A stretch of DNA of 64,000 nt, from contig CAVSBL010000002.1 in NCBI GenBank assembly GCA_963726255.1, positions 416,001 through 480,000 on the forward strand, given 5' to 3'. The DNA comes from Candidatus Bathyarchaeota archaeon (GTDB lineage Archaea > Thermoproteota > Bathyarchaeia > 40CM-2-53-6). Numbering within the stretch: the stretch's first letter is position 1; each line of letters opens with the position of its first letter. Below are positions 22,870-61,126 of this stretch, one piece after another. The notes beneath the pieces were generated by a model that saw only the letters and a list, made by a program, of their open reading frames with translations, was not told the DNA's origin and searched no databases. A program made the position numbers and the translations under genes.

Positions 22870-22892
22870 TGCGCACCAGCCGACCCACACAC
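22870..22892 (-). repeat. Family A site (reverse orientation)
   Basis: TGCGCACCAGCCGACCCACACAC. Confidence 0.7.
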
Positions 22893-22917: not shown

Positions 22918-23514
22918 CTAATATGTTATCAGAATCTTCTCTTCAAGCGTTTCTTGAAGCTTCGCGACTGCTCGGTGAACCTCCCCCTCCTTCTTCGCAC
23001 CAGTGCAAACGAGTTTTCCACTGGCGAAAATCAGAATCACGGCCTTTGGGTCATCCATTCGATAGATCAGACCCGGAAACTGTTCAGGCTCATACATGGT
23101 GCGTTTCAGTGAGTAAGTTACCTTTTCCAAATCAATATGGCCGCCTAATCCTGCCGAAGCCACTATATTTTGAACCTGAATCTCAGGCTTACCCAGAATG
23201 ACGATCCCCATACGGTTGAGCTCGTCCACAACTTTCATAACGGCCTTGCGAGCCTGCCGCTCCGACTTCGCCCCAGTACATACCATTTTACCCGAGGTGA
23301 AGATCAACGTGGTGGCCTTCGGTTTTTTCAATCGATATACTAAGCCCGGAAATTGCTCAGGCCTATATTCTACGCCAGGGCACGCACGTACGATAGAGTT
23401 CAAATCAACATTCTGATGGAGAGTTCCTGTCGCGACCACGTTCTCGATGTTGATGAACGCTTTCCTTCCAGGCCGAGGTGCCACCACAGGTAAGCTCGCT
23501 ACATCAACGTTCAT
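22918..23514 (-). CDS. tbp: TATA-box-binding protein
   Basis: Two repeats: IENVVA..YRPEQFPGLVYRL..LIFTSGKMVCTGAK and QNIVAS..YEPEQFPGLIYRM..LIFASGKLVCTGAK. Confidence 0.96.
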   Translation of the reverse strand: MNVDVASLPVVAPRPGRKAFINIENVVATGTLHQNVDLNSIVRACPGVEYRPEQFPGLVYRLKKPKATTLIFTSGKMVCTGAKSERQARKAVMKVVDELNRMGIVILGKPEIQVQNIVASAGLGGHIDLEKVTYSLKRTMYEPEQFPGLIYRMDDPKAVILIFASGKLVCTGAKKEGEVHRAVAKLQETLEEKILITY

Positions 23515-23660
23515 GAAAACTTCAACTAGATATTCCCTACATCAATGTTCATGAGAACGAAAACCCTTGCAACACTCAACGCCAATCTATTGTACTCCAC
23601 CTTAAGTGAGTATCTACAAACATCCAGACTCAACGTGACAAGAACTCGTTGAACCGTGAG

Positions 23661-23686
23661 GTGTGTGTGGGCCTAGTGGTACACAT
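23661..23686 (+). repeat. Family A site (forward)
   Basis: GTGTGTGTGGGCCTAGTGGTACACAT. Confidence 0.7.
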
Positions 23687-23740
23687 GCTCTAAGGTTTCT
23701 TTATCTACGTTTTATAACACATTATCCAGTTGTTCTGCAT

Positions 23741-24913
23741 ATGAGACATGTTTTTGACATTACCATCGTAGGCGGCTCATTTGCCGGCATCAAGTCTGCG
23801 TGGGACTTACGGAACAAGATTCCTCGCCGCCACAGGATAACCCTGATTTCCGATAAGTCTAAGACGATAATTCGAGCCTCCTTCCCGCGAGTAGTCTTCG
23901 AGGATGTCCCTCTCGAAGAACTAGCGTTAGATTTGGCTAAGAATTTCAAAGGCACGGGCATCGAGTTTATCCATGATCGTCTTGTAAGGATTGATCAAAA
24001 CGATAACCAGATCATTACAGCTGAAGGCAAGCACAAGTTTGACTTTCTAGTCGTCGCCACAGGCGCGCGCCAAGCCTACGAACTTCTTCCCGGCAGTCAT
24101 GAATATGCCAGGTCCATATGCGACCCATCCCAAATTTTGGAGACAAAGAAGGCTATCCTGAATTTTCGAGAAGGCGATTTCTATTCTGGAGTAGGAGCAG
24201 GCTATACACCCTGCGACGGCCCTCCTCTAGAAATGCTCATGGGCCTGGATCACCGCTTACGCAAGCTGGGCTCCCGCGATAAAGCCCAACTCAACTTCAT
24301 CACAGACAAGGAGAAGGTTCTGCCACCAGGCGGACCGACAATTTGGGCGTACCTAGAAAACCTCTTCAAGAAACGACGGATCAATGCTCTGCTCGGCGTT
24401 GAGCTTACAAGGCTTGACGCCGATTATCTCTACTTTGCAGACGGCTCGAAGAAACCCTACGACCTCTGCTTACTAATACCGCCTTACCGCGGCGTTAAGG
24501 AAGTGGAGGACTCTGGCCTAACAGAAGAGCTAGGTTTCATTCCGGTCGAACAGAACACCATGCGTGCCCAAAAATCTGAAAACTCGAACATCTACGCCGT
24601 AGGAGATGCCGCCGCGATCCCTGGCCCCAAGCAGGGGCACCTCGCGCTCATGCAAGCAGGCGTCGCAGCAGCTCACATCGCTTGGCGCATCAACAAGAAG
24701 GGCGAGGTACCAAGCTACATACCTGAATTCAAGTGCGTCATGTATCTTGGCGGTGGAAAAAGCCTGCAATTATACTCGCAATGGATGTCCGACGGCGACG
24801 TTCAAATAGCAAAAGCCAGCCATCAAGCTGAACTTTCCAAAATCAAATTCGAAAAACTCTTCTTCAGCCGCCGCGGTAACATCGGTGAACTTCATAGAAA
24901 AATGATAAAGTAG
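23741..24913 (+). CDS. FAD-dependent oxidoreductase, sulfide:quinone oxidoreductase-like
   Basis: ITIVGGSFAG, DFLVVATG, PCDGPPLE, NIYAVGD, PKQGH, FKCVMYLGGG (two SQR-type Cys). Confidence 0.8.
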   Translation: MRHVFDITIVGGSFAGIKSAWDLRNKIPRRHRITLISDKSKTIIRASFPRVVFEDVPLEELALDLAKNFKGTGIEFIHDRLVRIDQNDNQIITAEGKHKFDFLVVATGARQAYELLPGSHEYARSICDPSQILETKKAILNFREGDFYSGVGAGYTPCDGPPLEMLMGLDHRLRKLGSRDKAQLNFITDKEKVLPPGGPTIWAYLENLFKKRRINALLGVELTRLDADYLYFADGSKKPYDLCLLIPPYRGVKEVEDSGLTEELGFIPVEQNTMRAQKSENSNIYAVGDAAAIPGPKQGHLALMQAGVAAAHIAWRINKKGEVPSYIPEFKCVMYLGGGKSLQLYSQWMSDGDVQIAKASHQAELSKIKFEKLFFSRRGNIGELHRKMIK

Positions 24914-24954
24914 AATCCGCAGTTACTCAGCCTCCAACCAATCGCGTTAATGAT

Positions 24955-26451
24955 ATGGCAGAACAAACGAGCAACGACCAGTGGCGTGGGAGTGGCCGAA
25001 CCTTAGCGAGTGATGTTGGGGCTTCGAATTACAAGTGGACTGTTCTTCTGATCACTACGATTGGGGCTTTCATGGCGCCGTTTGATGGCAGCGTAGTGAC
25101 AATCGCGATTCCCGCCATCGCCTCCTCGATCAGGCTGGGATTGGAGGCGGCGGTTTGGATTCAACTAGCCTACCTTCTCTTTTTGACAGTGCTTTTGATT
25201 AATGCGGGTAGGCTGGCCGACCTTCATGGAAGGAAACGGTTCTACACGCTCGGGTTCATCATCTTCACCGTCGGATCGGTGCTTTGCGCGCTGTCCACGA
25301 CAGATCTACAGCTAGTATCTTTCAGAGCCTTACAGGGGTTGGGGGCGGCGTTCATTTCCGCTAATAGTCCCGCAATCGTAACCGACACGTTTCCCCGGGA
25401 AGAACGCGGTAAAGCATTGGGCATCAACACGATGGCAGTATACACCGGGCTCATGGTTGGCCCTGTGCTCGGAGGTGTTCTGGTTCAGAATTATGGTTGG
25501 AGGTCGATCTTCTTCGTGAACGTCCCAATTGGGATCGTAGTAGTTGCGTTAACCACTCTCAAATTGAAAGAGAATATGCCTGACGAGAGGGGGACAGGAT
25601 TTGACCTTCCGGGCGCAGCAACGCTCTCCTTAGGATTAGCCTCGACGCTAGTTGTGCTGACGCTCGGTGGTGTGTTTGGTTGGGTTTCAGCACCCAGCAT
25701 CCTGCTAGCTGGGCTGAGCGTTGTCATGCTGCTGTTGTTCTGGCGAATTGAGACAGGGCTAGTCCGGTTTCCCACGTTGGATTTGTCGTTGTTTACGCGG
25801 AACCGGTTGTTTGCGGCAGCGAATGCGACCGCTTTTCTGAGTTATGTTGCGGTGAACGGGGTCACGTTGACGATGGCGATCTACTTGGAGAGTATCAAGG
25901 GCCTAGGCCCGCAGACTGCGGGCTTATTCCTGATTGCGCAGGCTACGCCAATGGCTTTGCTTTCCCCGTTGAGTGGTTGGCTCTCAGACCGGTTTGGGTC
26001 GAGAGTGCTGTCAACGTTGGGTATGGGCATTGTAAGTATGGGGTTGTTATTGTTTTCAGAGTTGAATGCGACGTCGTCGGCGTTGGATACGGTCTTGAGG
26101 CTTGTGGTGGTTGGGGTTGGGTTTGGCTTGTTCTCGTCCCCCAACACGAGTGCTGTGATGGGTTCTGTGAGGCAGGAGAAGTTGGGGGTAGCGGCTGGAA
26201 CATTGGGTACAATGCGTTTCATGGGCCAGTCGATAGGATTGGCATTGCTTGGGATGGTTATGGCGGCCACATTGCCGTCCCAGGCTTTGCTCGCGGTTTT
26301 CGCTGGGCTCACCTCACAAGGCGGCTTGACAGTTAGCGAGTTTGTTGTGGGGATGAGGGACTTCTTCCTGATAGCTGCTGGAATAGGAGCAATTGGAACG
26401 CTAGCGTCAACGACCAGAGGTCAAGAAAACACATCGAATGCGGAAGATTGA
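24955..26451 (+). CDS. MFS drug:H+ antiporter (DHA2/EmrB-QacA type)
   Basis: GRLADLHGRKR, FRALQGLG, GWRSIFFVNVPIG, GWLSDRFGSR; many TM segments. Confidence 0.92.
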   Translation: MAEQTSNDQWRGSGRTLASDVGASNYKWTVLLITTIGAFMAPFDGSVVTIAIPAIASSIRLGLEAAVWIQLAYLLFLTVLLINAGRLADLHGRKRFYTLGFIIFTVGSVLCALSTTDLQLVSFRALQGLGAAFISANSPAIVTDTFPREERGKALGINTMAVYTGLMVGPVLGGVLVQNYGWRSIFFVNVPIGIVVVALTTLKLKENMPDERGTGFDLPGAATLSLGLASTLVVLTLGGVFGWVSAPSILLAGLSVVMLLLFWRIETGLVRFPTLDLSLFTRNRLFAAANATAFLSYVAVNGVTLTMAIYLESIKGLGPQTAGLFLIAQATPMALLSPLSGWLSDRFGSRVLSTLGMGIVSMGLLLFSELNATSSALDTVLRLVVVGVGFGLFSSPNTSAVMGSVRQEKLGVAAGTLGTMRFMGQSIGLALLGMVMAATLPSQALLAVFAGLTSQGGLTVSEFVVGMRDFFLIAAGIGAIGTLASTTRGQENTSNAED

Positions 26452-26480
26452 AAGGCGATTCTACGGGGGAATCTGAGAAT

Positions 26481-26513
26481 GCGTGAATGCGAGCACCAGT
26501 TGTACCACGCACA
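26481..26513 (-). repeat. Degenerate family A site (reverse)
   Basis: GCGTGAATGCGAGCACCAGTTGTACCACGCACA. Confidence 0.4.
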
Positions 26514-26559
26514 TATTTTTGACGGCGAATGACGACGGTTGGAACGGGAATTTGCCTGT

Positions 26560-26780
26560 AAGATGTCGTTCGGATTTCTAGTTCTATGTTTGATTAGTGC
26601 ATAGGCGATTGTCATGAAGACTGCGAGTAAGGGTAGACCGTAGGGATATTCGGGTATTGCATTATTGGTTGCCGTGAAATTCACGCATGAACTCTGTGGA
26701 ACAGATTCGGGTCCCTGATACGGGTAACTGTTGTCAAAGGCATAGACGCTGTACATGCCTGCAGGAAATGGTCTTCGCAT
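26560..26780 (-). pseudogene. C-terminal fragment of a surface protein with PEF-CTERM-like sorting signal
   Basis: AIPEYPYGLPLLAVFMTIAYALIKHRTR (PEx motif, TM, basic tail) with no N-terminal part. Confidence 0.55.
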
Positions 26781-26823
26781 GTGCGTATCAGTTGTACCTC
26801 ATCTTCGGTGACTGTCATCTTAT

Positions 26824-26850
26824 TGTGTGCGCACCATTAGACCCCGCACA
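26824..26850 (-). repeat. Family A site (reverse)
   Basis: TGTGTGCGCACCATTAGACCCCGCACA. Confidence 0.8.
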
Positions 26851-27114
26851 AAAATCCCGAATATACCTGAGAAACCTTAGCCTAAGAGTCAAGCGTGAGA
26901 ATGTAAGCCTGCTAGGGACGAGGCCCCTGACTTCGTTCGATCGAGATTGGGTTGAGGCGTGTTAACACTCATCATAATCCCGGAGATAACGCACGACCTC
27001 GAAATGAGGGCCTACATCATGCAGATGGCCCATCTCGGTATGGAACACGCACGTTCTATATGAGGTACATTGATATACCTACATCCATGCCATATACTAC
27101 TGAGAGTCGAAAAT

Positions 27115-28560
27115 ATGCAAAGAAAACAATTAGCATACACAGCCGCATTCATCCTACTTCTAGCCCTCCCATTTCTGTCAATTCCATCACTCACAGCGCC
27201 CCAGCAATCAAACCTCCAGTTCGAACCACTCATACTCTTAGCCCCCGACGACGCCCAATACCCAACCGTCGGCCCATTCGCGTGCACAACACCAATCCCA
27301 GTCCGCTACTCAACCTCGTTCCACTGCTACAACCCCGCCAACATAACCGAAGCATACGGCGTCGATAGCCTCCACGCAGCCGGAATTACAGGAGCAGGCG
27401 AAACAATAGTCATAGTCGACGCGTATGGCAGCCCAACCGCACAGAACGACCTAAACTTCTTCAGCACCACCTTCGGTCTCCCAAGCGCCAGCCTCACCAT
27501 CGTCTACCCCGACGGCACCCCAACCTGGAGTCCGTCTGCGATGAAAGGCGTCAAGGTCAACTGGGCCGTGGAAACAAGCCTTGACCTGCAATGGGCCCAC
27601 GCCATAGCCCCGGGCGCTAAACTAGTCCTCATCGCAACCAACCCAGCAGAGACACAAGGCGTGCAAGGATTCCCGAACATGTTCAAAGGGATCCAATACG
27701 CCATCAACAACTATCCAGGCTCAGTCGTAAGCCAGAGCTTTGCCGCTACCGAGCAATCGTTCCATTCAGCAGGCGACGCAATAATCCGACAATTCGACAA
27801 AGTATACCAACAAGCCGAAGCTAACTATGTGACCGTCATTGGGGCCTCAGGCGATAGCGGTACAGCGAACTCCATAGGCGGCCAAGGCGCGTCCACACCC
27901 AAACCACTCGCCTACCCAACAGTCAATTGGCCATCCTCCGACCCGCTAGTAACCTCCGCAGGCGGAACATGGCTTCAATACAACTGGACATGGACCCCAA
28001 CCTCGCCGACAGACCTAACCTACGCCACAACACCCGGCTCAAAGACTGAAGCCGTATGGAACGAACCATTCCTGCCCGCAGCGACCGGCGGCGGACTCAG
28101 TACACTATTCTCAAAGCCATCATTCCAATCAAGCATACCTTCCAGCCTATTGAACGGCCAACGCGGATTACCGGACCTATCATGGAACGCAGCAGTTGAC
28201 GGCGGAGTCCTAGTCTACACAAGCTTCCCAGGATTGGGAACCGGCTGGCACATAGTAGGTGGAACCAGCGCAGCCTCACCACAACTAGCAGGCCTAATCG
28301 CCCTCGCAAACCAGAAAGCTGACATACTCGGCAAGAGCCACCACGTCGGCTACCTCAACCCAATCCTTTACACATTGCCAGCCTCCGACTTCAACGACAT
28401 CATCCCACAAACCTTCGGCAGCGTAACAATAGACAACAATTCGCTATACGGCTCAGGCGTCGCAGGCTACTCAGTGACGGTAGGATACGACCTCGCCACT
28501 GGATTCGGAAGCCCGAACGCAGCCAACTTCGTCAACGACCTCGCCAACGCACTACCCTAG
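27115..28560 (+). CDS. Secreted S53 (sedolisin/kumamolisin-like) peptidase
   Basis: Signal peptide; ETSLDLQW (Glu/Asp), ASGDSG, GGTSAASP (Ser), YDLATGFGSP. Confidence 0.9.
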   Translation: MQRKQLAYTAAFILLLALPFLSIPSLTAPQQSNLQFEPLILLAPDDAQYPTVGPFACTTPIPVRYSTSFHCYNPANITEAYGVDSLHAAGITGAGETIVIVDAYGSPTAQNDLNFFSTTFGLPSASLTIVYPDGTPTWSPSAMKGVKVNWAVETSLDLQWAHAIAPGAKLVLIATNPAETQGVQGFPNMFKGIQYAINNYPGSVVSQSFAATEQSFHSAGDAIIRQFDKVYQQAEANYVTVIGASGDSGTANSIGGQGASTPKPLAYPTVNWPSSDPLVTSAGGTWLQYNWTWTPTSPTDLTYATTPGSKTEAVWNEPFLPAATGGGLSTLFSKPSFQSSIPSSLLNGQRGLPDLSWNAAVDGGVLVYTSFPGLGTGWHIVGGTSAASPQLAGLIALANQKADILGKSHHVGYLNPILYTLPASDFNDIIPQTFGSVTIDNNSLYGSGVAGYSVTVGYDLATGFGSPNAANFVNDLANALP

Positions 28561-28688
28561 CCTTGAAAAAAGGCCAGCAACTCTCCCTTCCCTTTCTTTC
28601 TTTTCCAGATCGCGATCTTAACCTCACGGTTGAATCGTACCTTCGCGGTGTATCTTGATTTGTATGATTGCTAGTATCTTTCGGAAAC

Positions 28689-29303
28689 TCACAGGGTCTT
28701 CTTCAGGGCCCGTATGTTGAATGTTGTATTGGCGCAACCATTCCTGATTAAAGGCACATTTTGACCTGGCAGCCCCGTCTTCTCTAGCAGCCTTTCAGCT
28801 AGCTTGATCTCCTCGCCGCAGGCGACGCCCACAAGTGCCTCATAACGGCCTTTTTGCAGAATCTGATGGATACATGACCCGCCCGGCAGAACATAAACAT
28901 CGTACCCTCTCTCCTCCCCAGCCAGTGTCGCTTGGTTTACCAAGCAATCGGGTGAACAGTGAGAGCAGCGGTATGATGGAATGTTGGAATCGAAGACGGC
29001 TTTACAGCGATTGTCCATATATTTCCTTGAGCAGTGAGGTAGCAGCAGCACTCGCCTGGAAGTTCTTACGAATCTTTCCCGGTTGTTGAAATTCTTAGTC
29101 TGGATATCTATCAAATCTTCGAGGAGCATTAGAGCTTGAGCAAAATCCAACCCTGTGATCTCCTGAACTCTGAATCGCTCAAGAAGACGCAGAGTTGCCT
29201 CACCAATTCTTCTGTGCAGCCTTCTCTTCTGGGCAGCCACCACAATTCCTGTGAAGAACGATTGAGATAGCCGTGTCAGGTCGAACTTGAATTGGTAAGG
29301 CAT
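28689..29303 (-). CDS. DUF116-domain protein
   Basis: LLLPHC, C..CSPDC, YVLPGGS, VGVACGEE, NGCANT. Confidence 0.82.
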   Translation of the reverse strand: MPYQFKFDLTRLSQSFFTGIVVAAQKRRLHRRIGEATLRLLERFRVQEITGLDFAQALMLLEDLIDIQTKNFNNRERFVRTSRRVLLLPHCSRKYMDNRCKAVFDSNIPSYRCSHCSPDCLVNQATLAGEERGYDVYVLPGGSCIHQILQKGRYEALVGVACGEEIKLAERLLEKTGLPGQNVPLIRNGCANTTFNIRALKKTL

Positions 29304-29371
29304 GAGTCTCGTATTACCGCCAGGAGCAATAAGCTCACAGGGCGAGTCCTGGTTTTGGTACTTTATCGGAA

Positions 29372-29404
29372 GTGCGTGCGCGCACCAGCAGACCCCATAC
29401 ACAC
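29372..29404 (-). repeat. Family A site (reverse)
   Basis: GTGCGTGCGCGCACCAGCAGACCCCATACACAC; abuts the stop codon of the adjacent gene. Confidence 0.75.
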
Positions 29405-29701
29405 CTAATCGATATGTCCCAGCAGAATCTGCCAGGGCTCGATCTTAGCGATTCGGAGTATGCCCATCGACATCCAAGGATCGGCAGCAAGTCGTCTCTC
29501 AATCGCACTTTCTCTGTCAGCACTGACGATCAGCATTCTTGAATCATCGCCCAAAGGACCGCCGAGAAGTACAAAACGCTCGTCAACAAGGCTGTTCATA
29601 AATGCCGCATGTTTGGCCCACTCTTCTTGCTCCCGTATGGACCGCGAATGATTCCAGGCTGGGCCAAGCGCTTCAATTACCACGAAATACTTCATACTCA
29701 T
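29405..29701 (-). CDS. YciI-family protein
   Basis: GPAW...REQ..W..HAAFM..L...FVLLGGPL, LAADPW. Confidence 0.8.
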   Translation of the reverse strand: MSMKYFVVIEALGPAWNHSRSIREQEEWAKHAAFMNSLVDERFVLLGGPLGDDSRMLIVSADRESAIERRLAADPWMSMGILRIAKIEPWQILLGHID

Positions 29702-29782
29702 CCGTTCGAGATCTATACAGAGTTTGTCAAATTGCCGACAAACGCTTGTCACAAGGGCGGCTGAAGTTCAGGCATTTTCCTA

Positions 29783-29813
29783 TGTGTATGGGTCTAATGG
29801 TGCGCACACACAC
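29783..29813 (+). repeat. Family A site (forward, near-complete palindrome)
   Basis: TGTGTATGGGTCTAATGGTGCGCACACACAC. Confidence 0.85.
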
Positions 29814-29858
29814 TAAGAAAAGGGAAGCCTCAAAAACCATTCGAACTAATGGGAATGC

Positions 29859-30308
29859 ATGAATTCCGAGGTTCTTGATCTCGAACTGCTGATTCGTAAG
29901 CCACCAGATTCGGTTCGCGCCTGGTGGACGGAGTACCCGGACGACTACCGCGCGAAGGACCCACGAGAACAACCATACCGAATCCTGACCACTCGTCGGT
30001 TCCCGAACGGCCGAGAGGTTAGAACCTATTGGCGACTGCCCGATGGATCAACTCCGGAGTTGCAGGAGGTCCTCAACTTGAAACCCGACGGAACGTGGAC
30101 TTATGAACTTCCGTATCCAAATCCAACAGGCATCCATGTCTTCGATGAATTTCGCACTGAACCAACACCGATCGGAACCAGACTCTTGATACATAGTACG
30201 TTGACACCGCGAGACCCTGCCGCTACAGGCCGTGTTTCCGGGCTAAAGGAAATCATGATTTGGAGTTGGAAGCATGCAGCAGAGGTTTGTGAACATGACG
30301 CCCCTTGA
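29859..30308 (+). CDS. Hypothetical protein, possibly SRPBCC/START fold
   Basis: IRKPPDSVRAWWT start, EPTPIGTRL and a C-terminal helix. Confidence 0.55.
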   Translation: MNSEVLDLELLIRKPPDSVRAWWTEYPDDYRAKDPREQPYRILTTRRFPNGREVRTYWRLPDGSTPELQEVLNLKPDGTWTYELPYPNPTGIHVFDEFRTEPTPIGTRLLIHSTLTPRDPAATGRVSGLKEIMIWSWKHAAEVCEHDAP

Positions 30309-30410
30309 TTAAGTCAGCCTACGGCAAAACCGAATCTCCCTCTGTGGTCTGTGGGTGTACTGCGTCATAATGGGCACAGGGAAAACATTCCGAATACGAC
30401 GCCTAGAATC

Positions 30411-31103
30411 TCAGAGACCAGCTTTCGCTTTCAACGCTGCCCATCTGTCTTCACCTAACGCTTCTTCTGCCATGCGTGCCAGGTTCTGGAAAACCGGCGC
30501 AGGCGCGCTCTTCTTCAATTCCATGAACATGCCAGTTAGTTCGTTAATGTTGAGCGATGGAAAGAGCCAACTATTCCATTGAGCAGCTCGTTCAGCCGTG
30601 AGGCTTTCAATCACGTTTGTTCGCATAGCAATAATCTGTTCATCAGTAAAATGTTTCCACATCGCAGGGACGAGTGTCGATTCTTCACCATTCAGATGTG
30701 TAAGGTAGAAGGCGAACAAATCATTCGCTGTGCGGTTCAGTTTATCGCCCATCTCAATCCTTTCTTCTCGATTCTTAAGCGTCTTTACTTCATCTGCAAT
30801 CTTCCACAGACCTGCTATCATTCTCACAACCTCTCTATGCTCCTTCAATAGTGTATCGACCATCTCGGGCTCAAACGCTCGAACATCCGGAAAGACATAC
30901 TGATCCTCGAGCCCTGCATGTTCATGAAGCAAGCAGAGAGTGCAAGCAGAACTAGCGGAGGCAAGATCCTGCTTCAACCTGGAGACCATTGCGTCGGTTG
31001 CGTGCTCATCGGTGAAGTCTGTTGCTTGAAGTTCCTTTGCCAGTTCGTAAATCATTGACCGAAGGGCTTTATGAATTGGCGTCAAAAAATCTGCGCGAGT
31101 CAA
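30411..31103 (-). CDS. Hemerythrin-domain protein
   Basis: IHKALR, HAGLEDQYVFP, KEH, HLNGEESTLVP. Confidence 0.82.
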   Translation of the reverse strand: MTRADFLTPIHKALRSMIYELAKELQATDFTDEHATDAMVSRLKQDLASASSACTLCLLHEHAGLEDQYVFPDVRAFEPEMVDTLLKEHREVVRMIAGLWKIADEVKTLKNREERIEMGDKLNRTANDLFAFYLTHLNGEESTLVPAMWKHFTDEQIIAMRTNVIESLTAERAAQWNSWLFPSLNINELTGMFMELKKSAPAPVFQNLARMAEEALGEDRWAALKAKAGL

Positions 31104-31165
31104 GACTTGATCGTAGCGGGAGTATGATGCAGCGTTATTTGTTTCTTATCCTTGTTGGGGCGAGT

Positions 31166-31196
31166 TGTGTGTGGGTCTAGTGGTGCGCACACACAC
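31166..31196 (+). repeat. Family A site (forward, best-conserved copy)
   Basis: TGTGTGTGGGTCTAGTGGTGCGCACACACAC. Confidence 0.88.
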
Positions 31197-31235
31197 TTCT
31201 AACCGACGTTCTGACGACGAGCATGCTGCTTTTTC

Positions 31236-31895
31236 TCAACGCTGTCCAGTCGGTACCTTTTCCGCATGCAAGAGGACGAAGGCCAGCACCGCCACCCATA
31301 GCATCCAACCATAGATGTTAACGCGTTCAGTGGCACCGAGCCATGGGGTCGGCAGGTTAGCGCTAATCGCAGGAACGTAAGAAAATCCAATAAAACCAAA
31401 CGCCAAGATTATCATGAACGACCCGACCGAGTAGTAGCGGAACCAATTTCGATATGCAACGGCTCCGAACACTATGGCCAACAGAATGGTGAAAACCCCC
31501 ACAGCGGTGAGAATCACGTGAAGCATACCGGCAGACTCTGCGCCGGTCACCCCGCGCATCGGTGCTGGGAAGTATACGGGCGTCACCAAACCATCGATCG
31601 CCTGGCCGAATACCATCAATGCTGTGACGCGCAAGGCGCGGTTGCGACCAGCTGACACCCAGACGCCCAAAGCGAACGCAAGCAAGAGCACGCCATACAC
31701 GGCGCCTAACCGAAGACCGAGTTGTCTAACAGGAGAGCTGGGGGAGAGCAGCTCGCTGAAGCCTTGAGATGCAAAACTGTAGCCCACATACAGTGTACCT
31801 GCGAGCGCGTCGATACTGGCATAAAGCAGCGAAGAGAAGATGCCGCAGAGGAGTAAGACCTGTCGTTTTTTCGTCAATGTCTGCGCAAGCCCCAC
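31236..31895 (-). CDS. DUF998-family membrane protein
   Basis: GYSFASQGFSEL, a conserved His, PTPWLGATERVNIY. Confidence 0.78.
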   Translation of the reverse strand: MGLAQTLTKKRQVLLLCGIFSSLLYASIDALAGTLYVGYSFASQGFSELLSPSSPVRQLGLRLGAVYGVLLLAFALGVWVSAGRNRALRVTALMVFGQAIDGLVTPVYFPAPMRGVTGAESAGMLHVILTAVGVFTILLAIVFGAVAYRNWFRYYSVGSFMIILAFGFIGFSYVPAISANLPTPWLGATERVNIYGWMLWVAVLAFVLLHAEKVPTGQR

Positions 31896-32074
31896 CAGGC
31901 CCCTACATCCTGGCGGTCAAGTACGAGGTCATGATTTGTGGTTTCCGTTTCTTGCGCGTGTCCAAGATGACCAGGGTAACCATAGTCCGATTGGTTGTCC
32001 TAGGGGCTGCTTTGTTCTTCTCCCGTTAGCGTAGAGGTAATATGCGTTGGGCCATAGGCTACGTGTCGTGATTC

Positions 32075-32887
32075 ATGTCGATGAAGGTAAGTCCGATAGT
32101 CTTCCAAGCTAGTAACGTGGTCGCGGTCATCGCTGTACTCATCATGAATACGTTGGTGAACATACTGCCGCTTAACGGTGTAACGACTGGGCAAGTTTCC
32201 GATTCCTATCCCAGTCTATTCACTCCACCAGGCTACGTCTTCTCTATCTGGGGCATGATCTATGCCTTTGCAGTGGTCTTCATGTTCTATCAAGCTAGAC
32301 CGAGCGAACGCGCGAAAGCCTACCTGACGCAGATCAACTTCCTATACCTTATCAGCGCTATCGCCAACGTGTCCTGGCTGTTTATCTTCCAATACTCCTA
32401 CGGGGTTCCACAGCTTTTCGTTATCTCACTGATCCCTATGACCGCCCTACTTCTCTGCCTAATCTCAATGTACCAGCGCTTGGGCATTGGAAGAATTCGT
32501 GTGCCTCGAAACCAGAAGCTTGCTGTTCACCTGCCAATCAGTATCTATCTCGGCTGGGTCTCGCTTGCCATCATAGCCAACATTGCATCAGTCTTGAACG
32601 TACTCATTCCAGGCATCCCCATGCCTACGCAGGCGCTTTGGACAGCCATCGTACTGGTCGTGGCTCTGGCGATCACAATTCTCATGGTGTGGACTCGAAG
32701 CGATTTCGCGTTCGGGCTTGTAGTTATCTGGGCTTCGATCGGCATTGCGTTCAATCGAGTTGCAATCCCCGCTGTCTTCGCGACTTCAACCGTAACCGCC
32801 ACCGTCGTGGCGATTCTCATCCTTGCCACACCATTCCTCAAGAAGGGGGGCTTCATTAGGTTCTACATGACAGCCAGCGGCGAGTAG
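32075..32887 (+). CDS. TspO/MBR-like tryptophan-rich membrane protein
   Basis: LPLNGVTTGQVSDSYPSLFTPPGYVFSIWGMIY, SIYLGWVSLA..AN. Confidence 0.78.
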   Translation: MSMKVSPIVFQASNVVAVIAVLIMNTLVNILPLNGVTTGQVSDSYPSLFTPPGYVFSIWGMIYAFAVVFMFYQARPSERAKAYLTQINFLYLISAIANVSWLFIFQYSYGVPQLFVISLIPMTALLLCLISMYQRLGIGRIRVPRNQKLAVHLPISIYLGWVSLAIIANIASVLNVLIPGIPMPTQALWTAIVLVVALAITILMVWTRSDFAFGLVVIWASIGIAFNRVAIPAVFATSTVTATVVAILILATPFLKKGGFIRFYMTASGE

Positions 32888-32953
32888 GCAGGGCCACAAG
32901 CCGCATTCTCATCCAATTTCACATGTAACCGCTGGGCTGTTTGCGTAGTACTC

Positions 32954-33008
32954 ATGGTGCGCACACACACAGCCCTTACGGTGACAACCTCAACGGTCTG
33001 CGCACCAG
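32954..33008. repeat. Two partial family A sites (forward 32954-32970, reverse 32999-33008)
   Basis: ATGGTGCGCACACACAC and TGCGCACCAG. Confidence 0.65.
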
Positions 33009-33627
33009 CTCATAAGGTACCCAATATCCTCGCTAGTACCAGAAACCCAAGTCGGAGCTATAGAATCTGGACAAGCCAGTGGACTCTTTCGCAAACGTCT
33101 TGAATACAGCCTGAAAGAAACAGGCCTGCATGAATGCGCGACTAGCGGTATCGTGTTTTGCTGTCAGTAAAGAAGCGGTGATCGTTTTGAACCATTGAGA
33201 GATTCCCGCTAGTAAGCGGGGCAGACCTGCCGGATTTGTAACGGCGACCAACCCCTCAGATATGGAAGGAATTAGGCGAGTTTTGGAGTGCCCAGGTCAA
33301 CGTCGGATTTGTGCTCTCGCAGCAGATTATCGATGACAACAATCCAATCAGCCTATTATCTCTAGAGGTGCAGGCTGACTTGGAGGCATGAATTGAATGC
33401 TTGGTTCGAGCGGTTACGTCACGTATTCGAAATGTGGGTTGTTCTTGTTTTCACTCGGTATCCGCATCTCTTAATGATGGATCGATACTCGGAGGAAAAG
33501 GCCCAGATCATGACTAGACTGTCGAACGAGACCAGAACGAAGAACTCAAGGAGCAATAAATCCTCCCGACTTTAGACTGGCTCCTTTCTTGTGCGAATTG
33601 GAGTGCCCTGATTGAACTGACGTTCCG

Positions 33628-33669
33628 GTGTGTGTGGGTCTAGTGGTGCGAGCAGTGGAATTTGAACCG
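33628..33669 (+). repeat. Family A left arm fused to a tRNA 3'-end complement
   Basis: GTGTGTGTGGGTCTAG-TGGTGCGAGCAGTGGAATTTGAACCG. Confidence 0.78.
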
Positions 33670-33744
33670 TCGTCGTTCGTAGTTAGTGAAGGTATGTAGG
33701 CGCACCAAGGGTACCAAATATGTCTGACCGCACGTGCGCGCTTC

Positions 33745-36847: not shown

Positions 36848-36882
36848 GTGTGTGTGGTGCGGTCTCGTGGTGCGCACACACA
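36848..36882 (+). repeat. Family A site (forward)
   Basis: GTGTGTGTGGTGCGGTCTCGTGGTGCGCACACACA. Confidence 0.78.
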
Positions 36883-37124: not shown

Positions 37125-37148
37125 TGTGTGTGCGCACCATTAGACCCC
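37125..37148 (-). repeat. Family A site (reverse)
   Basis: TGTGTGTGCGCACCATTAGACCCC. Confidence 0.82.
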
Positions 37149-39229: not shown

Positions 39230-39252
39230 GTGTGTGTGGGTCTATTGGTGCG
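39230..39252 (+). repeat. Family A left arm plus core
   Basis: GTGTGTGTGGGTCTATTGGTGCG. Confidence 0.8.
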
Positions 39253-39413
39253 CCGCCCCCGCCGCGGGCTTAATGACCTTGACGACGCCGACGAAGACGA
39301 ACGATTACGACGACGCTAATACGAACGACGACATGATTGCTTACGAACGACAAGAACTCTTCAACGAGAACCTACAGAACAGTTCTTCATTGCGTATGAG
39401 TATGAAGTGACTG

Positions 39414-40967
39414 TTGAACAATCGAGTCTCTCGGGTGCGAGTTGAGGAAAGGCTCTATATCAACCGGCTCGGCTATCTTAGCCGAATACGACATCAGGTA
39501 ACCGTGAACCCTTTGCAACCAGCCGACTTCGCCCGGTCGAAGAGCTTCATCCCACCCGCATTCTCCTCAACGAAGCCGACGCTTGATAAGAACAGGGTTG
39601 CAGTCCTGCCGTTACAAAACATGAGCCCCGACCCCGCAGATGAATACTTCGCGGATGGCATGACTGAGGAGCTGATTGACAGACTTTCCCAAGTGAAGAG
39701 TCTACAGGTCATAGCTCGAACGTCGGTGATGAATTACAAGAAGAAAGAGAAGAATGTCTCCGAAATTGCAAAGGAGCTTAGCGTGGGTTCAGTGGTTGAA
39801 GGTAGCGTGAGGAAAGCGGGCAACCGGGTCAGAGTCACAGTTCAGCTAATCAGCGCAGAGACCGAGGCGCACCTGTGGTCCTCCCACTACGACAAGAATC
39901 TGGACGACATCTTCGCTGTCCAGAGCGAAATAGCGGAGAAGGTGGTTGGCGAGCTGAAGACCCAACTACTCGACTCTGAGAAAAGGACCCTAGAAAAGAA
40001 GCCGACCGAGAACACGGAGGCGTACACCTGCTTCCTGCGGGGTAGGGAGCTGTACAATGAGGAGACTGAGACCTCGTTTAGGCAGGCCCTCAGCCTCTTC
40101 GAGAAGGCCATCGTGCTGGATCCCAAGTTCGCGAAGGCCTACGTGGGAGTCGCAGACTGCCACCAATCGCTTGTTGGAAGCGGATGCGAGCCCGATGACA
40201 TCGGACTCCCAATTGTGAACACCTCGCTGGAGCGCGCCATTGAACTCGACCCGAACCTTCCGGAGGCCCACGCATCACTCTGCGGGATGTTCTTCAACGC
40301 GGACGACTCCGTGCGGTCGGAGGCAGAGGCGAGGAGGACTTTGGAGCTCAACCCCAGCCTCCCAGACCCCCACAATATCCTAAGCGAGCTAGCTGCGCTC
40401 AAAGGGGACCAAGGAGAGATGGTCAAACAAATGGAGGCAGCGTACCGACTCGACCCCATCAGGCCCCACCTCATCTGGCTTCTCGGGATGGTGTACCTCT
40501 ATACTGGGAAGGAGGAGGAGGCGCTTGAGCTCTGGAAGAAGACAGAGCAGTTGGCGCCGGCGCCCAGGTACAGAGGCATGGTTGAGTACTACCTGGCCAA
40601 GAGGGAGCTCGACAAGGCTAAGGAGTTCCACGCGAAAGCCGAGAAGCTTGAACCCACCCGTCCCTGGCTCTTCTGGACGAGTGGAGTCATCGCGGCCATA
40701 GAAGGCGACAGGGAGAAGGCGCTGCTCGCGTTCAAGAAGATTGAGGACGCCAAGATGGGCCCGATGGGCTTCAACTTCATCGGGTACGTCCATTATGCCC
40801 TCGGAGACCTGAACTCATTCTTCGCGTACATGGATAAGGCCCTCGAAGCCCATGCACTAGTTACCCTAATACTGATGTACTCGCCGCTCTTCGCTCAGGC
40901 AAGAGCCGACCCACGATATCCGGAACTGGTCGAGAGAATCCGGAAGCAGTGTGGCCTAACGAAATAG
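39414..40967 (+). CDS. TolB-N/TPR protein of the adenylate-cyclase-associated type, N-terminal domain missing
   Basis: RVAVLPLQNMSPDPADEYFADGMTEELI, EGSVRKAGNRVRVTVQLI, TPRs, RADPRY; start uncertain. Confidence 0.85.
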   Translation: MNNRVSRVRVEERLYINRLGYLSRIRHQVTVNPLQPADFARSKSFIPPAFSSTKPTLDKNRVAVLPLQNMSPDPADEYFADGMTEELIDRLSQVKSLQVIARTSVMNYKKKEKNVSEIAKELSVGSVVEGSVRKAGNRVRVTVQLISAETEAHLWSSHYDKNLDDIFAVQSEIAEKVVGELKTQLLDSEKRTLEKKPTENTEAYTCFLRGRELYNEETETSFRQALSLFEKAIVLDPKFAKAYVGVADCHQSLVGSGCEPDDIGLPIVNTSLERAIELDPNLPEAHASLCGMFFNADDSVRSEAEARRTLELNPSLPDPHNILSELAALKGDQGEMVKQMEAAYRLDPIRPHLIWLLGMVYLYTGKEEEALELWKKTEQLAPAPRYRGMVEYYLAKRELDKAKEFHAKAEKLEPTRPWLFWTSGVIAAIEGDREKALLAFKKIEDAKMGPMGFNFIGYVHYALGDLNSFFAYMDKALEAHALVTLILMYSPLFAQARADPRYPELVERIRKQCGLTK

Positions 40968-41091
40968 AAGTCGCGTTTAGTCTAGTGACTGTAGAACCTT
41001 CAACCAACCGTTCTACCGCTTGGCCTTCTGCATTATGATTTGATTGTCCGTTAGCGATATCAGCACGGTATCACCGGCTTTTAGAGTAAGA

Positions 41092-41125
41092 GGGTCTAAT
41101 GGTGCGGGCTACCAAAATTGAACCG
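41092..41125 (+). repeat. Family A core fused to a degenerate tRNA 3'-end complement
   Basis: GGGTCTAA-TGGTGCGGGCTACCAAAATTGAACCG. Confidence 0.7.
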
Positions 41126-41154
41126 AAAGTTCCGGTAGTTTTCAGTGGAAGAAG

Positions 41155-41173
41155 TTGTGCGGCCGCCGGGACT
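41155..41173 (-). repeat. tRNA 3'-end fragment (Gly-like), att-like scar
   Basis: Minus strand AGTCCCGGCGGCCGCACAA resembles the archaeal tRNA end TCCCGGCGGCCGCACCA. Confidence 0.55.
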
Positions 41174-41210: not shown

Positions 41211-42125
41211 TTAGAAGCCGAAGTATTCGTCTGGAATGAATTTTGCATCCGGGTCGATGCATCTTTTGATCAGGTCCATCGGCAGGAAGCAATTCTCTTC
41301 TTCAAAGAACTCAGCTTCGAACTCCCTTCGAAACCGGTCTCGGGGAATCCTACGCCGCATCTCCTCAACGAAATCAGTTGTGGTTAGGCCAGCTTTGATT
41401 ACGTCGTCGATGCTGATCTTGTGGACCTTGAAGGCTGGGTCTTGTGTGAACTGGTAGAAGACCGAGTTCTTTACCCAGGGTGTGGATGAGGCGATTAATG
41501 TGCCCTGGGTGGTTTGGAGCATGGGAAAGAGCACGCTGTAGAACATCGTCTCGTCATCACGAAAGAAGGCGCACTCGTCGCAGATGCATTGATTTGCGCT
41601 GTAACCCCGCAGCAAGTTCGTGGAGCAGGGCAGAGCGATGATTTGCGAGCCATTCTTGAACCATATGACAGTTCGCTGTATCTTCCCGATGTACTCTCTG
41701 CGAATTGGTCGGGGCATAGCCATCAGGAAGGAGTGGACCCGGTCCATCATGATCATGCTTTGCCGAAACCCAGGGGCGACGATGAGCGTCACGGTCTTGG
41801 AGTTTCTGCATGCGAACCAGATGGCCCTAGCTGCGATCGTCATGGACTTTCCCGATTGCCGTGGGTAAATGACAACGATTCGCTTCCCTGTCTCCCGGAG
41901 AAGCTTGGCTTGGTATTCGGCCGGATTGAATTTCAACGCCTTCTGAGCGAAAAGAACAGGGTCCTCAAGGTCCTGTTCCGAAAGCTGCTCAAATGGTGAT
42001 GAGCCTTCTCCAGGATCCTTCCCTGCGACGATCCTCTCGAAGGCTATTCTACGCCTTTCCTGTAGCCGTTTTTGCTTGTTCTTCGAGCTGTCTGGTAGCT
42101 TCCTCAAATGCCCTCTGCTCCTCAC
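41211..42125 (-). CDS. Phage terminase large subunit, ATPase domain only
   Basis: FNPAEYQ (Q motif), YPRQSGKS (Walker A), LRG, ICDECAF (Walker B), ASSTP, FRREFEAEF; no nuclease domain. Confidence 0.88.
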   Translation of the reverse strand: MRSRGHLRKLPDSSKNKQKRLQERRRIAFERIVAGKDPGEGSSPFEQLSEQDLEDPVLFAQKALKFNPAEYQAKLLRETGKRIVVIYPRQSGKSMTIAARAIWFACRNSKTVTLIVAPGFRQSMIMMDRVHSFLMAMPRPIRREYIGKIQRTVIWFKNGSQIIALPCSTNLLRGYSANQCICDECAFFRDDETMFYSVLFPMLQTTQGTLIASSTPWVKNSVFYQFTQDPAFKVHKISIDDVIKAGLTTTDFVEEMRRRIPRDRFRREFEAEFFEEENCFLPMDLIKRCIDPDAKFIPDEYFGF

Positions 42126-42796: not shown

Positions 42797-43543
42797 TTGA
42801 GGTCGAGAGGGCATGAGGTTAGGGCGGAAGACCCAGACCGCCGATTCATGGTCCTATACGCGATTCAGCGAGGAGCGAAGCGTTTCAACCAGATCTGGTT
42901 CGATAGCGAAGTCAGGGACGTGATCCATAGTAGGCTTACGCTCTCGCGGTACTTGAAAGCGCTAGAGAAGGAGGGCGTAATCAAGCGCAGCCCTGTATCG
43001 CACAAACATGTTGAATACGAGATTGCCGCAGGCGAACAGAGCAGTTGGGTGCTCGCCGCACAAGAGTCAGGTTTTGTCCCCTTCGACATTGAAGTGTTCC
43101 AGTTGATACTCAAGAGCATACGGGACAAAGCAAGCGGCTTGGACATAGCGTTGAACTACGCTTTCAGACGATTCTTTGAAGAAGAAATCAACGACGCCAC
43201 CGCCAAGATCATGGGCGGCATGCCCCAATACCGAAAACCCCTAGCCGAAGCCATGAAACTCACACATACCCCACACGAGAAAATTAATGAGGATTGGAGC
43301 GATGACATGATCACGTGGAGGTCAAGACGATACTACATGTTCCTGAAAAATCTACGGAGTTTGCTGCTCGAGGAACCTGAACATGTGGAGATATACCTTA
43401 AGGAAAGACCGTGGCTACGCCGGCCGAAAGAAAACAGGAATGGTGCCATTCTACATATAGAACGAATCTTGGCAGAGAAATACCCTCACACGCCGGGCGG
43501 GCTCGAACTCAAACACGCACTGAGGCAGGGAGAAAAATCGTAG
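42797..43543 (+). CDS. Winged-helix domain protein
   Basis: KRFNQIW...SRLTLSRYLKALEKEGVIKR...VEYEI. Confidence 0.7.
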   Translation: MRSRGHEVRAEDPDRRFMVLYAIQRGAKRFNQIWFDSEVRDVIHSRLTLSRYLKALEKEGVIKRSPVSHKHVEYEIAAGEQSSWVLAAQESGFVPFDIEVFQLILKSIRDKASGLDIALNYAFRRFFEEEINDATAKIMGGMPQYRKPLAEAMKLTHTPHEKINEDWSDDMITWRSRRYYMFLKNLRSLLLEEPEHVEIYLKERPWLRRPKENRNGAILHIERILAEKYPHTPGGLELKHALRQGEKS

Positions 43544-43566
43544 TTCGGGAGTGCTCGAGTTGCAGT

Positions 43567-43604
43567 CCCACGAATCGTGGGTTCGAATCCCACCGGCCCC
43601 ACTA
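43567..43604 (+). repeat. Family B tRNA 3'-end snippet 1
   Basis: CCCACGAATCGTGGGTTCGAATCCCACCGGCCCCACTA. Confidence 0.8.
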
Positions 43605-58363: not shown

Positions 58364-59065
58364 TTATGGCTGCGGTCCCAAACCTAGTGCTCTCAGTAGT
58401 TCTTTCGATGGTTTGAGATCTGAAAAAACCCAAGTCGCATTCGCTTGAGATAACTGCTCCAATGAGAATATGCCGCTAGCGATCCCGATCGACGTAGCCC
58501 TAGCCGCGTTGGCTGCGCTCATATCTCTGGGCGTGTCACCAACAATCATAACGTTCTTGCGGTCTGACAGCTTATAGTTCGCCACGCATGTCCTCACAGC
58601 GTCTTCAATCAGGCGGTTGCGGTCAAAATAAGTGTCAGCGTAGAAATGTTCTGCGAAATATGAATCGATTCCCGTGACCCTCAATTTCTCGGTGGCAACT
58701 GCTGAAAGGTTGCCGGTGAGCACTCCTAGAATATGGTTTTGTGATTTTGTAAGAATGCGCAACAGTTCTTCGACTCCTTCGTTTAGTATGGGTCTTTTTT
58801 TCATGTCGCGATAAATCTCGCCCATCCGCGTGAGAACTTTGGAGAGGAAGTATTCTACATTCTCGTCATCTAAGCCGGTCTCAGCCAGAAGTATCTTGCA
58901 GATCTGAGGATCCACCATGCCTGCAAAACGCGATGGGATTACTGACGGCTCCATGCCGACGACATCATGTATAGTTTTGAGATACCGGCGTCTTTCATCC
59001 TCTTCAGCCGCGGAACTCGATACTAGCGTCCCATCAATATCGAACAGAACTATATGCACGATCAA
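58364..59065 (-). CDS. HAD-superfamily hydrolase
   Basis: LFDIDGTL, LTGN, IVGDTPRD. Confidence 0.9.
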   Translation of the reverse strand: MIVHIVLFDIDGTLVSSSAAEEDERRRYLKTIHDVVGMEPSVIPSRFAGMVDPQICKILLAETGLDDENVEYFLSKVLTRMGEIYRDMKKRPILNEGVEELLRILTKSQNHILGVLTGNLSAVATEKLRVTGIDSYFAEHFYADTYFDRNRLIEDAVRTCVANYKLSDRKNVMIVGDTPRDMSAANAARATSIGIASGIFSLEQLSQANATWVFSDLKPSKELLRALGLGPQP

Positions 59066-59520
59066 CTAGATCCGCCCTATCTGGACCGTCTGCAGCTCCC
59101 CACAATAAGAGGAAGCCCTGTCCCATGGAAACCGCACAACAAGCAGATCTCTAGAGGCCAGAACTTCGTAACGGTCGGAAGTGTTAAACATGCAATAGCG
59201 ACATTAGATCTACATGTGATTTCTGTGCCGAAGAAGAAGAAACCAAAGAAGAAAAAGTAACCAAAGAACCAAGCATTTCCATTGCGGCAACGAGCAAGTT
59301 GAAGTAGGTAAGTTAGAGCCCCCGAAGCTCTTCCACTGAAACCCTACTGCCCCTAGGAACCTATGTTTTTTAGGCGATGAATGCCGCATTCGCGGATGCG
59401 GTGCTCTCTGGCTTGCACCTCGCGGCCACACTACGCCCGGAAGGGACTCACGCTTGTCAGATTCTGGAGTAGGGGCGCCGCTTCCCATTCATTGTTAGAA
59501 CGGCTTGGCAGGAGTCCAGT

Positions 59521-61086: not shown

Positions 61087-61126
61087 GTGTGTGTGGGTAA
61101 CGTGGTGCGGGCAACCAAATTTGGAC
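61087..61126 (+). repeat. Family A left arm fused to a degenerate tRNA-end complement
   Basis: GTGTGTGTGGGTAACG-TGGTGCGGGCAACCAAATTTGGAC. Confidence 0.65.

Follow-up and report, generated by a model that had tools for sequence, protein, structure and literature searches.

tRNA-like hybrid sites in a Bathyarchaeia genome as probable junctions of Cas1-dependent transposons

Introduction

The subject of this report is a 64,000-nt stretch (the window; contig C2, positions 416001-480000) of a 2.42-Mb archaeal assembly, G000, whose relatives are named Bathyarchaeia. The window holds copies of a 15-bp core that ends in TGGTGCG. At palindromic sites the core lies between a left (GT)n and a right (CA)n arm; at three places, here called hybrid sites, the right arm is replaced by a sequence that resembles, on the opposite strand, the 3' end of a tRNA. 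The hybrid is best explained as a standard junction, one of two kinds, that Cas1-dependent transposons of a casposon-related family produce in one Bathyarchaeia genus; a probability of roughly 0.78 is assigned to this reading. The anatomy of the sites, the identical core copies that flank elements, the matching types of element end and the Cas1 elements of the same structure in sister species are direct observations. The units of the window itself would be non-autonomous or fossil members of the casposon type. A first-pass annotation of the same DNA had proposed instead that the palindromes are attP-type junctions and that the hybrids, attL/attR-like, record crossover with a tRNA gene inside TGGTGCG. 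Taken as a model of integrase-type elements and resident tRNA genes, this is now very improbable and has largely been refuted already.

Anatomy of the hybrid sites

The hybrids that the first-pass annotation placed at 33628, 41092 and 61087 are real. Each consists of the core, GGGTCTAN-TGGTGCG, followed by RGCA-N4-AATTTGAAC in the place of (CA)n. Their components are:

33628-33669 (+): first hybrid, (GT)4 GTGTGTGT, GGGTCTAG, TGGTGCG, AGCAGTGGAATTTGAACC
33628..33635 (+): right terminal repeat, (GT)4, of the element E2 described below; metagenome contigs lose their match exactly before 33628
33636..33650 (+): 15-bp core GGGTCTAGTGGTGCG, the copy of the duplicated target site nearest the leader; agrees with the copy at 31173-31187 at 15/15 positions; the - strand reads CGCACCA CTAGACCC
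33651..33669 (-): tRNA 3'-end-like 'leader' arm, GGTTCAAATTCCACTGCT and then the CGCACCA of the core; tRNA spacing, no tRNA call
41092..41125 (+): second hybrid, GGGTCTAA TGGTGCG GGCTACCAAAATTGAACC; its core, 41092-41106, is an exact copy of the 15-mer and agrees at 14/15 positions with the core at 39238
61087..61125 (+): third hybrid, (GT)4 GTGTGTGT, a degenerate core GGGTAACG TGGTGCG with 3 mismatches, and the arm GGCAACCAAATTTGGAC

The second hybrid (41092) is missing its left (GT)n arm, that is, the right terminal repeat of an element, and no partner core was found for the third (61095).

The 15-mer core, GGGTCTANTGGTGCG, occurs seven times exactly in the window and 14 times with up to 3 mismatches; 100 shuffles gave 4.15 on average and never more than 9. 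Thirteen exact copies are present in the genome, and none of the reversed pattern that served as control (reversed patterns were used for the core and arm searches alike). Genomes of the same genus carry the core in 16 of 18 cases, those from other genera of the order in none of 12. A survey of the G000 genome and 26 loci from ten sister species returned 181 core hits: 72 palindromic with (CA)n on the right, 55 with the tRNA-like arm and 54 other or noise. The hybrid form is a recurrent class, not a set of three accidents. Hybrids are conserved from (GT)n across the core as far as AATTTGAAC, where conservation ends (GAAC on the arm strand). Metagenome contigs from one study lose their match to the window at 33628 on the left and 33667-33673 on the right, and likewise at 31165 and 31196, which marks these positions as borders of repeated units.

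A tandem array and the grammar of its junctions

The first hybrid closes a tandem array with the following members:

29790-29804 (+): distal core copy, 14/15 against the next core
29805-31172 (+): element E1; cargo, a 149-aa open reading frame (ORF) and a hemerythrin gene
31165..31196 (+): 'palindrome', (GT)n-core-(CA)n; right end of E1, shared duplicated target, left end of E2
31188..33635 (+): element E2, 2,448 bp, bounded by (CA)n and (GT)n and lacking Cas1; it carries a DUF998 gene at 31236-31895 (-) and a TspO-like gene at 32075-32887 (+)

The order is core 29790, E1, core 31173, E2, core 33636, arm. The two cores that flank E2 (31173 and 33636) are identical at 15/15 positions, and the distal core (29790) differs by one base. 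Two claims of the first-pass annotation fail on this structure. The repeat on both sides of the elements is the whole 15-bp core, a target-site duplication, and not a crossover confined to TGGTGCG; and a full palindrome is no attP site, each being the end of one element, the duplicated target and the end of the next element in a tandem array. At the orthologous hybrid of the sister genome G033 the right flank is 96% identical, and the DNA to the left of (GT)n is unrelated.

The same pairing of ends recurs across 161 classified junctions, which yield 64 consecutive same-orientation pairs. A (CA)n right arm upstream leads to a (GT)n left arm downstream in 27 of 39 pairs and to (GGC)n in none of them, and (CCG)n leads to (GGC)n in three of six. 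The upstream right arm and the downstream left arm thus correspond to each other as inverted ends. Cores identical at 15/15 positions make up 18 of the 64 pairs, against 8% of 5000 random pairs; the loci had been picked for holding cores or Cas1 and form a biased sample, from which the random pairs were drawn as well. Among pairs that end in a hybrid, 13 of 24 by row count are identical in this way, several with non-consensus cores; they include the window pair 31173/33636 and the pair C2:1561720/1561417, which shows the rare variant GGGTCTAATGTTGCG.

The arms of the palindromes were also compared base by base as possible stems. Their 720 positions comprise 444 Watson-Crick pairs, 36 G-T, 56 A-C and 184 other combinations. 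As G-T is not in excess over A-C, a selected RNA hairpin is not indicated, and a strand-specific RNA structure of the palindrome was rejected for want of strand-specific wobble.

Cas1 elements in sister species

Protein family searches covered Cas1 (PF01867), tyrosine integrases (PF00589) and Y1/RAYT transposases (PF01797), the last including the REP-associated tyrosine transposases (RAYT; REP, repetitive extragenic palindromic sequence). Cas1 is encoded in 12 of 22 sister genomes, in up to 11 copies each. Three of 16 scanned Cas1 loci are bounded by 15/15 identical direct cores in the order (GT)n-core, terminal inverted repeat, element interior, terminal inverted repeat, core-arm. The left copy of the core thus lies between (GT)n and the element's own terminal repeat, and the right copy between the other terminal repeat and the arm. 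All three pairs are non-consensus variants:

G015 Cas1 element, 11.0 kb: core GGGTATGCTGGTGCG on both sides; (CCG)n/(GGC)n ends, CCGCCCCCGCC... and ...GGCGGGGGC
G004 Cas1 element, 7.1 kb: core GGGTCAGCTGGTGCG on both sides; inverted ends alike over about 50 nt
G014 Cas1 element, 8.6 kb: core GGGTATAGTGGTGCG on both sides; (CA)n/(GT)n ends

Terminal inverted repeats are therefore present in this family, at about 50 nt of likeness in G004 and as 8-10 nt of (CA)n/(GT)n in G014, E1 and E2. A target-site duplication of the casposon length of 14-15 bp is seen as 15/15 direct cores at the three Cas1 elements and at E2 in the window. The Cas1 proteins of the bounded elements are 404-410 aa long and match PF01867 at about 1e-52. 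The 404-aa protein of G015 is encoded at L244 7180-8391, the Cas1 of G014 at L246 9170-10399. The G015 protein matches the structure chain 6opm_A with an E value of 8.4e-77 over residues 4-395, and other Cas1 chains at 2e-22 or weaker; 6OPM is cited in a paper on the structure of the Methanosarcina mazei casposase. The cargo of the G015 element comprises an HNH nuclease, a TPR protein and a TIR-domain protein, whose gene directly follows Cas1 (locus L244, G015:C3, 8396-9157). In G000, TIR, HEPN/AbiV and AbiEi/AbiEii genes lie near sites (C2 1343481-1344194, 1350129-1350629 and 263313-264969).

The enzyme indicated is a Cas1 casposase, and not an integrase. The integrase model does find some footing in the genus. 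Tyrosine integrases occur in 19 of 22 sister genomes, at six of 12 integrase loci a tRNA 3' end stands 0.5-1 kb away (four of these ends reading ...CCCCCGCACCA), and one integrase gene of G003 is followed by an arm-like sequence. Classical att-like tRNA fragments are present in G000 too: a 26-nt tRNA-Pro 3' end (GGGTTCAAATCCCACCCCCGGCGCCA) stands at C2 124267, 1249141 and 1891487, one copy being 2.2 kb downstream of a tRNA-Pro gene (1889156-1889290), and these copies look like classical integrase att remnants. Integrase genes of sister species adjoin tRNA-Pro and tRNA-Ser ends. The core is found at 0 of the 12 integrase loci in sister species. PF00589 and PF01797 have no match in the G000 genome, and Pfam detected no recombinase among 146 ORFs neighbouring the sites. 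The bounded elements have inverted ends and encode Cas1 rather than an integrase, and it is the whole 15 bp that is repeated, not the heptamer alone.

Integrons use an IntI integrase at attC sites, built as R''/L''-L'/R' around a GTTRRRY core, with cassettes in one orientation. An integron-like cassette array was rejected for the present sites: the genome has no tyrosine recombinase, the motif differs, and genes occur in both orientations.

The tRNA-like arm

Read on the - strand, the arm with TGGTGCG is GGTTCAAAT-T-N4-TGCYCGC-A-CCA. The spacing, a T-loop of 7 followed by 5, 7, A and CCA, is exactly tRNA-like. Among 23 genomes of the genus, 16 contain the pattern TTCRAWT-N13-CCA-YTAGACC, 60 times in all; the reversed control gave no match. 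This pattern itself fixes the spacing; with a looser 7-10-nt pattern, judged by reading the rows, nearly all copies keep the same spacing. All 60 matches have the acceptor-like TGCYCGC or close variants of it, and where tRNAs have C61 nearly all show T. At the T-stem position 4 nt differ freely from copy to copy, and their presumed partner (GACGG) is constant.

If this likeness to tRNA were accidental, the sites could be selfish or structural repeats with no link to Cas1, of the kind known as REP sequences, bacterial interspersed mosaic elements (BIMEs) or miniature inverted-repeat transposable elements (MITEs). The repeats are indeed short, intergenic, multi-copy and mosaic, and stand beside housekeeping genes as well; many copies have no Cas1 gene nearby, and this genome has none; and composites of about 95 nt with inverted cores (33628-33716) have inverted ends of 23 nt. 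We consider this unlikely. The near-constant spacing under the looser pattern, with that of the 60 pattern-fixed matches, argues against accident. Arm pairing in the palindromes shows no strand-specific wobble, identical non-consensus cores flank Cas1 elements with matching ends, and a Y1/RAYT transposase is absent from G000 and found in one of the 23 genomes, as a broken copy.

The first-pass annotation had likened the hybrid half to a tRNA 3' end. The geometry bears this out; an origin from a resident tRNA is not supported. tRNAs were sought with ARAGORN, with and without introns, and with Rfam, and 29 canonical 3' ends were strictly defined in the genome. ARAGORN finds no tRNA in the window, and Rfam gives no tRNA match at the hybrids at E<=5. 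None of the 29 host ends carries the arm or is followed by YTAGACCC, none of the 17 host tRNAs that pass the Rfam cut-off is followed by the core, and a regular-expression search for matching tRNA 5' halves was unproductive. The predicted arrangement of an intact tRNA directly followed by the family sequence was likewise seen nowhere in the 23 genomes, where every one of the 60 matches is the pseudo-tRNA arm and no genuine tRNA precedes YTAGACCC; this also counts against the integrase model. Host tRNAs encode CCA, but end differently from the arm. In this genome the palindrome and hybrid sites keep no special company with tRNAs, 2 of 46 lying within 2 kb of the 29 strict ends against 2.1 expected; of the 23 C61-type copies in other species, 4 stand at most 100 nt downstream from a genuine tRNA end and share its orientation.

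That the arms are pieces of real tRNA genes, for instance 3' exons, or else halves that belong to split or intron-rich tRNAs, is the least credible of the alternatives. It draws on the arm's tRNA spacing and encoded CCA, which host tRNAs share, and on the small number of tRNAs, 17, that pass the Rfam cut-off, most of them with introns. Yet the T stem is fully paired in one of 23 C61-type copies and unpaired in the other 22, ARAGORN calls no tRNA over any of the 23, and neither it nor Rfam matches any hybrid. There are dozens of copies with one acceptor sequence, and the freely varying T-stem nucleotides face a constant presumed partner. Because it has no T-stem partner, usually has T for C61, and shows one acceptor-like sequence in 60 copies, the arm is a family of its own, a pseudo-tRNA end and not a piece of a host tRNA. 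It would descend from a real tRNA 3' end, and a candidate source is a tRNA ending ...CCCGCACCA.

Host tRNA genes are themselves unusual. Most bear introns, often long or at unusual places, and counts for the whole genome range from 7 with plain ARAGORN and 17 at the Rfam cut-off to 35, some doubtful, with ARAGORN allowing introns. About half of the full tRNA set of G000 is missed by standard tools.

Proposed target and mode of insertion

The elements are classed as casposon relatives owing to the close fit of two features, a 15-bp duplication starting CGCA and an adjacent 18-nt mimic that spans T-loop to acceptor. The proposed target, read on the - strand, would have two parts. (i) An 18-nt leader, GTTCAAATT-N4-TGCY, would mimic the T-loop, the 3' strand of the T stem and the 3' strand of the acceptor. 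(ii) The 15-bp segment CGCACCA-NTAGACCC would be duplicated at each insertion. A new element would enter at the border between leader and segment, and the resulting order would be leader, copy, element, copy, older element, with any further units beyond. Viewed on the + strand, the hybrid would then be the (GT)n end of an element, a copy and the leader; the 'palindrome' would be the (GT)n end of one element, the shared copy and the (CA)n end of the next. The stretch 29790-33669 of the window would be an array of this kind, with two Cas1-less cargo elements. The arm may direct insertion, and Cas1 acting in trans, or in the past, would have moved the Cas1-less elements found here. The tie to tRNA-targeted integration that the first-pass annotation drew for the array survives in part: recognition would be of a tRNA-type target, and the mechanism is probably Cas1 transposition.

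A number of observations weigh against Cas1 transposition. PF01867 has no match in G000, window included, so that the movement of E1 and E2 is inferred. Of the other 13 Cas1 loci scanned in sister genomes, nine have a junction within 7 kb and no clean pair, and four have no junction within that distance; one of the nine (G014:C8) has inverted cores. No family B polymerase was found among ORFs of at least 110-120 aa in the three bounded elements (largest ORF, 487 aa), PolB elsewhere in the genus not having been searched. Terminal repeats of the (CA)n/(GT)n type measure only 8-10 nt. Both orientations occur among the cores of the window, and the G033 cassette corresponding to 22872 is bounded by inverted, not direct, cores. 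The same KaiC-like cassette occurs without the arm at its end in two of four other species, and many borders of shuffled modules in the 59-64 kb region have no junction. Finally, in 13 of the 64 pairs a leader is followed by another (GT)n-core, with tandem leaders 50-66 nt apart, which simple leader-proximal insertion does not predict. A short conserved tail after many arms, CCGTCGTCGTTCGT, resembles ACGACGACG repeats inside element ends; going by this likeness, a target copy may be present close to one end of the elements.

Other features of the window

Further cores and remnants in the window are:

22872..22886 (-): reverse-orientation core; G033 has a 1.0-kb KaiC-like cassette with inverted cores at this place
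26830..26844 (-): reverse-orientation core with (GT)-like and (CA)n arms
29381..29395 (-): reverse-orientation core; end of a DUF116 cassette, shared with other species, at 29378
33701..33715 (-): inverted degenerate core, CGCACCA AGGGTACC, where the homology of the major facilitator superfamily (MFS) cassette with G033 and G015 starts
36860..36874 (+): core between (GT)n/(CA)n arms, 2 mismatches
37133..37147 (-): reverse-orientation core, exact
39230..39310 (+): (GT)n, core 39238-39252 and a terminal inverted repeat rich in GC, CCGCCCCCGCCGC...TTGACGACGCCGACG, which shows homology to the ends of the G015 (L244) and G004 (L247) Cas1 elements
39414..40967 (+): TPR-repeat gene, cargo of the remnant; a homologue lies inside the G015 Cas1 element
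41152..41170 (-): fragment of a genuine host tRNA 3' end with downstream flank (gene at C2:925550-925641); adjoins the second hybrid

By homology, 39230..39310 is a putative left end of a casposon remnant, and 39230-41125 a predicted truncated element with GC-rich ends of the Cas1-bearing kind, its right end missing.

From 17 to 64 kb the window is a patchwork in which single genes or pairs are 85-97% identical to sister genomes, where they stand elsewhere and in another order; TATA-binding protein (TBP), MFS, hemerythrin, DUF116, cupin, CBS and TPR genes are among them. Some module borders fall exactly at sites, namely the MFS cassette (33701), the DUF116 cassette (29378) and the start of G033 homology (33628); others in the window have no site. 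Comparison with relatives gave eight candidate insertions or deletions. At the five whose junctions were inspected (numbers 1-4 and 6) the relative has no core; for numbers 2 and 3 a core is present in the window itself, and number 7, the case at 22872, has cores at both junctions. Elsewhere in the genome, a cassette at C2:871,0xx-871,7xx lies between two identical hybrids, and relatives diverge before the site.

Both G033 and metagenome contigs from runs X1 and X2 lack a 6.8-kb stretch, 23616-30409. The joint links 23615 to 30410 with GCTAA between, and the left break (candidate number 8) is about 40 nt before a core at 23669. At 59000-64000 the DNA is a mosaic of 150-750-bp modules, 85-97% identical to scattered counterparts in sister genomes, with most borders free of any motif; some modules have two or three copies in the genome (60477-60976 equals C2:121715-122215). 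Hybrids 41092 and 61095 were considered as ends of a 20-kb island, and this was rejected, the content being a mosaic of small modules. Adjoining the second hybrid is a fragment of a large terminase subunit gene (Terminase_6N, phrog_7579; 41211-42125, -), and at 43538-43604 (+) there is a tRNA 3' half (T arm and acceptor, a partial match to a transfer-messenger RNA model) at 43575-43604. Both probably derive from a tailed provirus that had integrated at a tRNA.

A KaiC/RecA-fold family of about 250 aa is strongly expanded in the genus, with eight matches in G000 and up to 25 per genome, many with in-frame stops; a Walker A motif seems, by eye, to be missing. G000 loci include C2 923636-924151, 1249289-1250113, 1774623-1775375, 1839934-1840707 and 1890475-1891257. 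A core site lies within 350 nt at 10 of 30 loci, often exactly 32-40 nt after the gene, and one such cassette has five different contexts in five species. As a mobilizing factor the KaiC-like protein was rejected, since the same cassette occurs without sites; it is kept as a frequent cargo. TBP genes, too, are multi-copy, several per genome across the genus, in variable site-rich regions; those of G000 include window 22918-23514 (-) and C2 121096-121665, 1773698-1774375 and 997412-997975.

Significance and comparison with known systems

[quoted passage not shown] To our knowledge, natural examples of repeated leader-proximal insertion are few. The uncultured genus described here offers dozens of leader-plus-repeat sites, runs of a 15-bp repeat that separate gene-carrying units, and autonomous polymerase-less Cas1 elements beside many non-autonomous derivatives. 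If confirmed, these would widen the host range and gene content of casposons, provide a simple 33-bp target for testing a new casposase, and explain a hypervariable, cassette-like part of these genomes, including their extra TBP, transporter and defence genes. For annotation, they are a warning that tRNA-like ends of this kind are neither tRNA genes nor integrase att sites.

A wider proposal is offered tentatively, at less than even odds: that the genus possesses polymerase-less casposon relatives with a portable, multi-copy target composed of a pseudo-tRNA leader and a 15-bp repeat, that Cas1 builds leader-repeat-cassette arrays of ordinary genes, and that such arrays persist after Cas1 is lost, as in G000. 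If true, portable-target arrays would be an extant intermediate linking tandem casposon insertion with the CRISPR array, and a new, integron-like means of assembling and shuffling gene cassettes in archaea.

Several known systems resemble the sites in part. Bacterial REP/BIME mosaics and MITEs share the short modular intergenic repeats, the palindromic forms and the derivation of non-autonomous units from transposons; unlike in REP/BIME, there is no RAYT, and the palindrome arises secondarily where two element ends meet across a duplicated target and is not a hairpin under selection. As in archaeal tRNA-targeting integrase elements of the SSV/pTN3 type, inserted DNA is bordered at the sites by copies of a tRNA 3' end. 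The sites differ in having no integrase, inverted ends, a repeat that extends 8 bp beyond CCA and an arm that matches no host tRNA.

The closest counterparts are casposons of family 2, those of M. mazei and Aciduliprofundum boonei, with which the elements share 6opm as the closest Cas1 chain, terminal inverted repeats, and HNH and TPR genes. According to PMC5137440, the A. boonei target is a 15-bp duplication together with the 18 bp beside it, which belong to a tRNA-Pro gene and span the T-psi-C loop; for M. mazei, a 14-bp duplication that starts with a conserved 5'-CGCA and overlaps a tRNA-Leu end has been published. The present target agrees in geometry, with its 15-bp, CGCA-starting duplication, approximately 18 bp upstream that mimic the region from the T-psi-C loop to the acceptor, and a 7-nt overlap (CGCACCA). 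It differs in being a dispersed pseudo-tRNA end in dozens of copies rather than the end of a working tRNA gene. Unlike described casposons, the three bounded elements show no family B polymerase and are in that sense not 'self-synthesizing', the majority of units are solo ends, composites devoid of cargo or short cargo elements that lack Cas1, and the host belongs to the Bathyarchaeia. No paper on casposons in Bathyarchaeia was found in the literature library searched; supplements of casposon papers may list such elements.

CRISPR leader-repeat arrays, built by Cas1-Cas2 spacer integration, are alike in organization, and the cassette arrays of this archaeon resemble a CRISPR locus in primitive form. 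In both, on the reading proposed here, a leader adjoins a short repeat that is duplicated at each insertion, and insertions accumulate in one orientation beside the leader. Repeats on either side of the unit next to the leader agree at 15/15 positions, the one farther out at 14/15. Unlike those of CRISPR, the repeat is 15 bp long, and the 'spacers' are elements of 0.05-11 kb with inverted ends and genes of their own.

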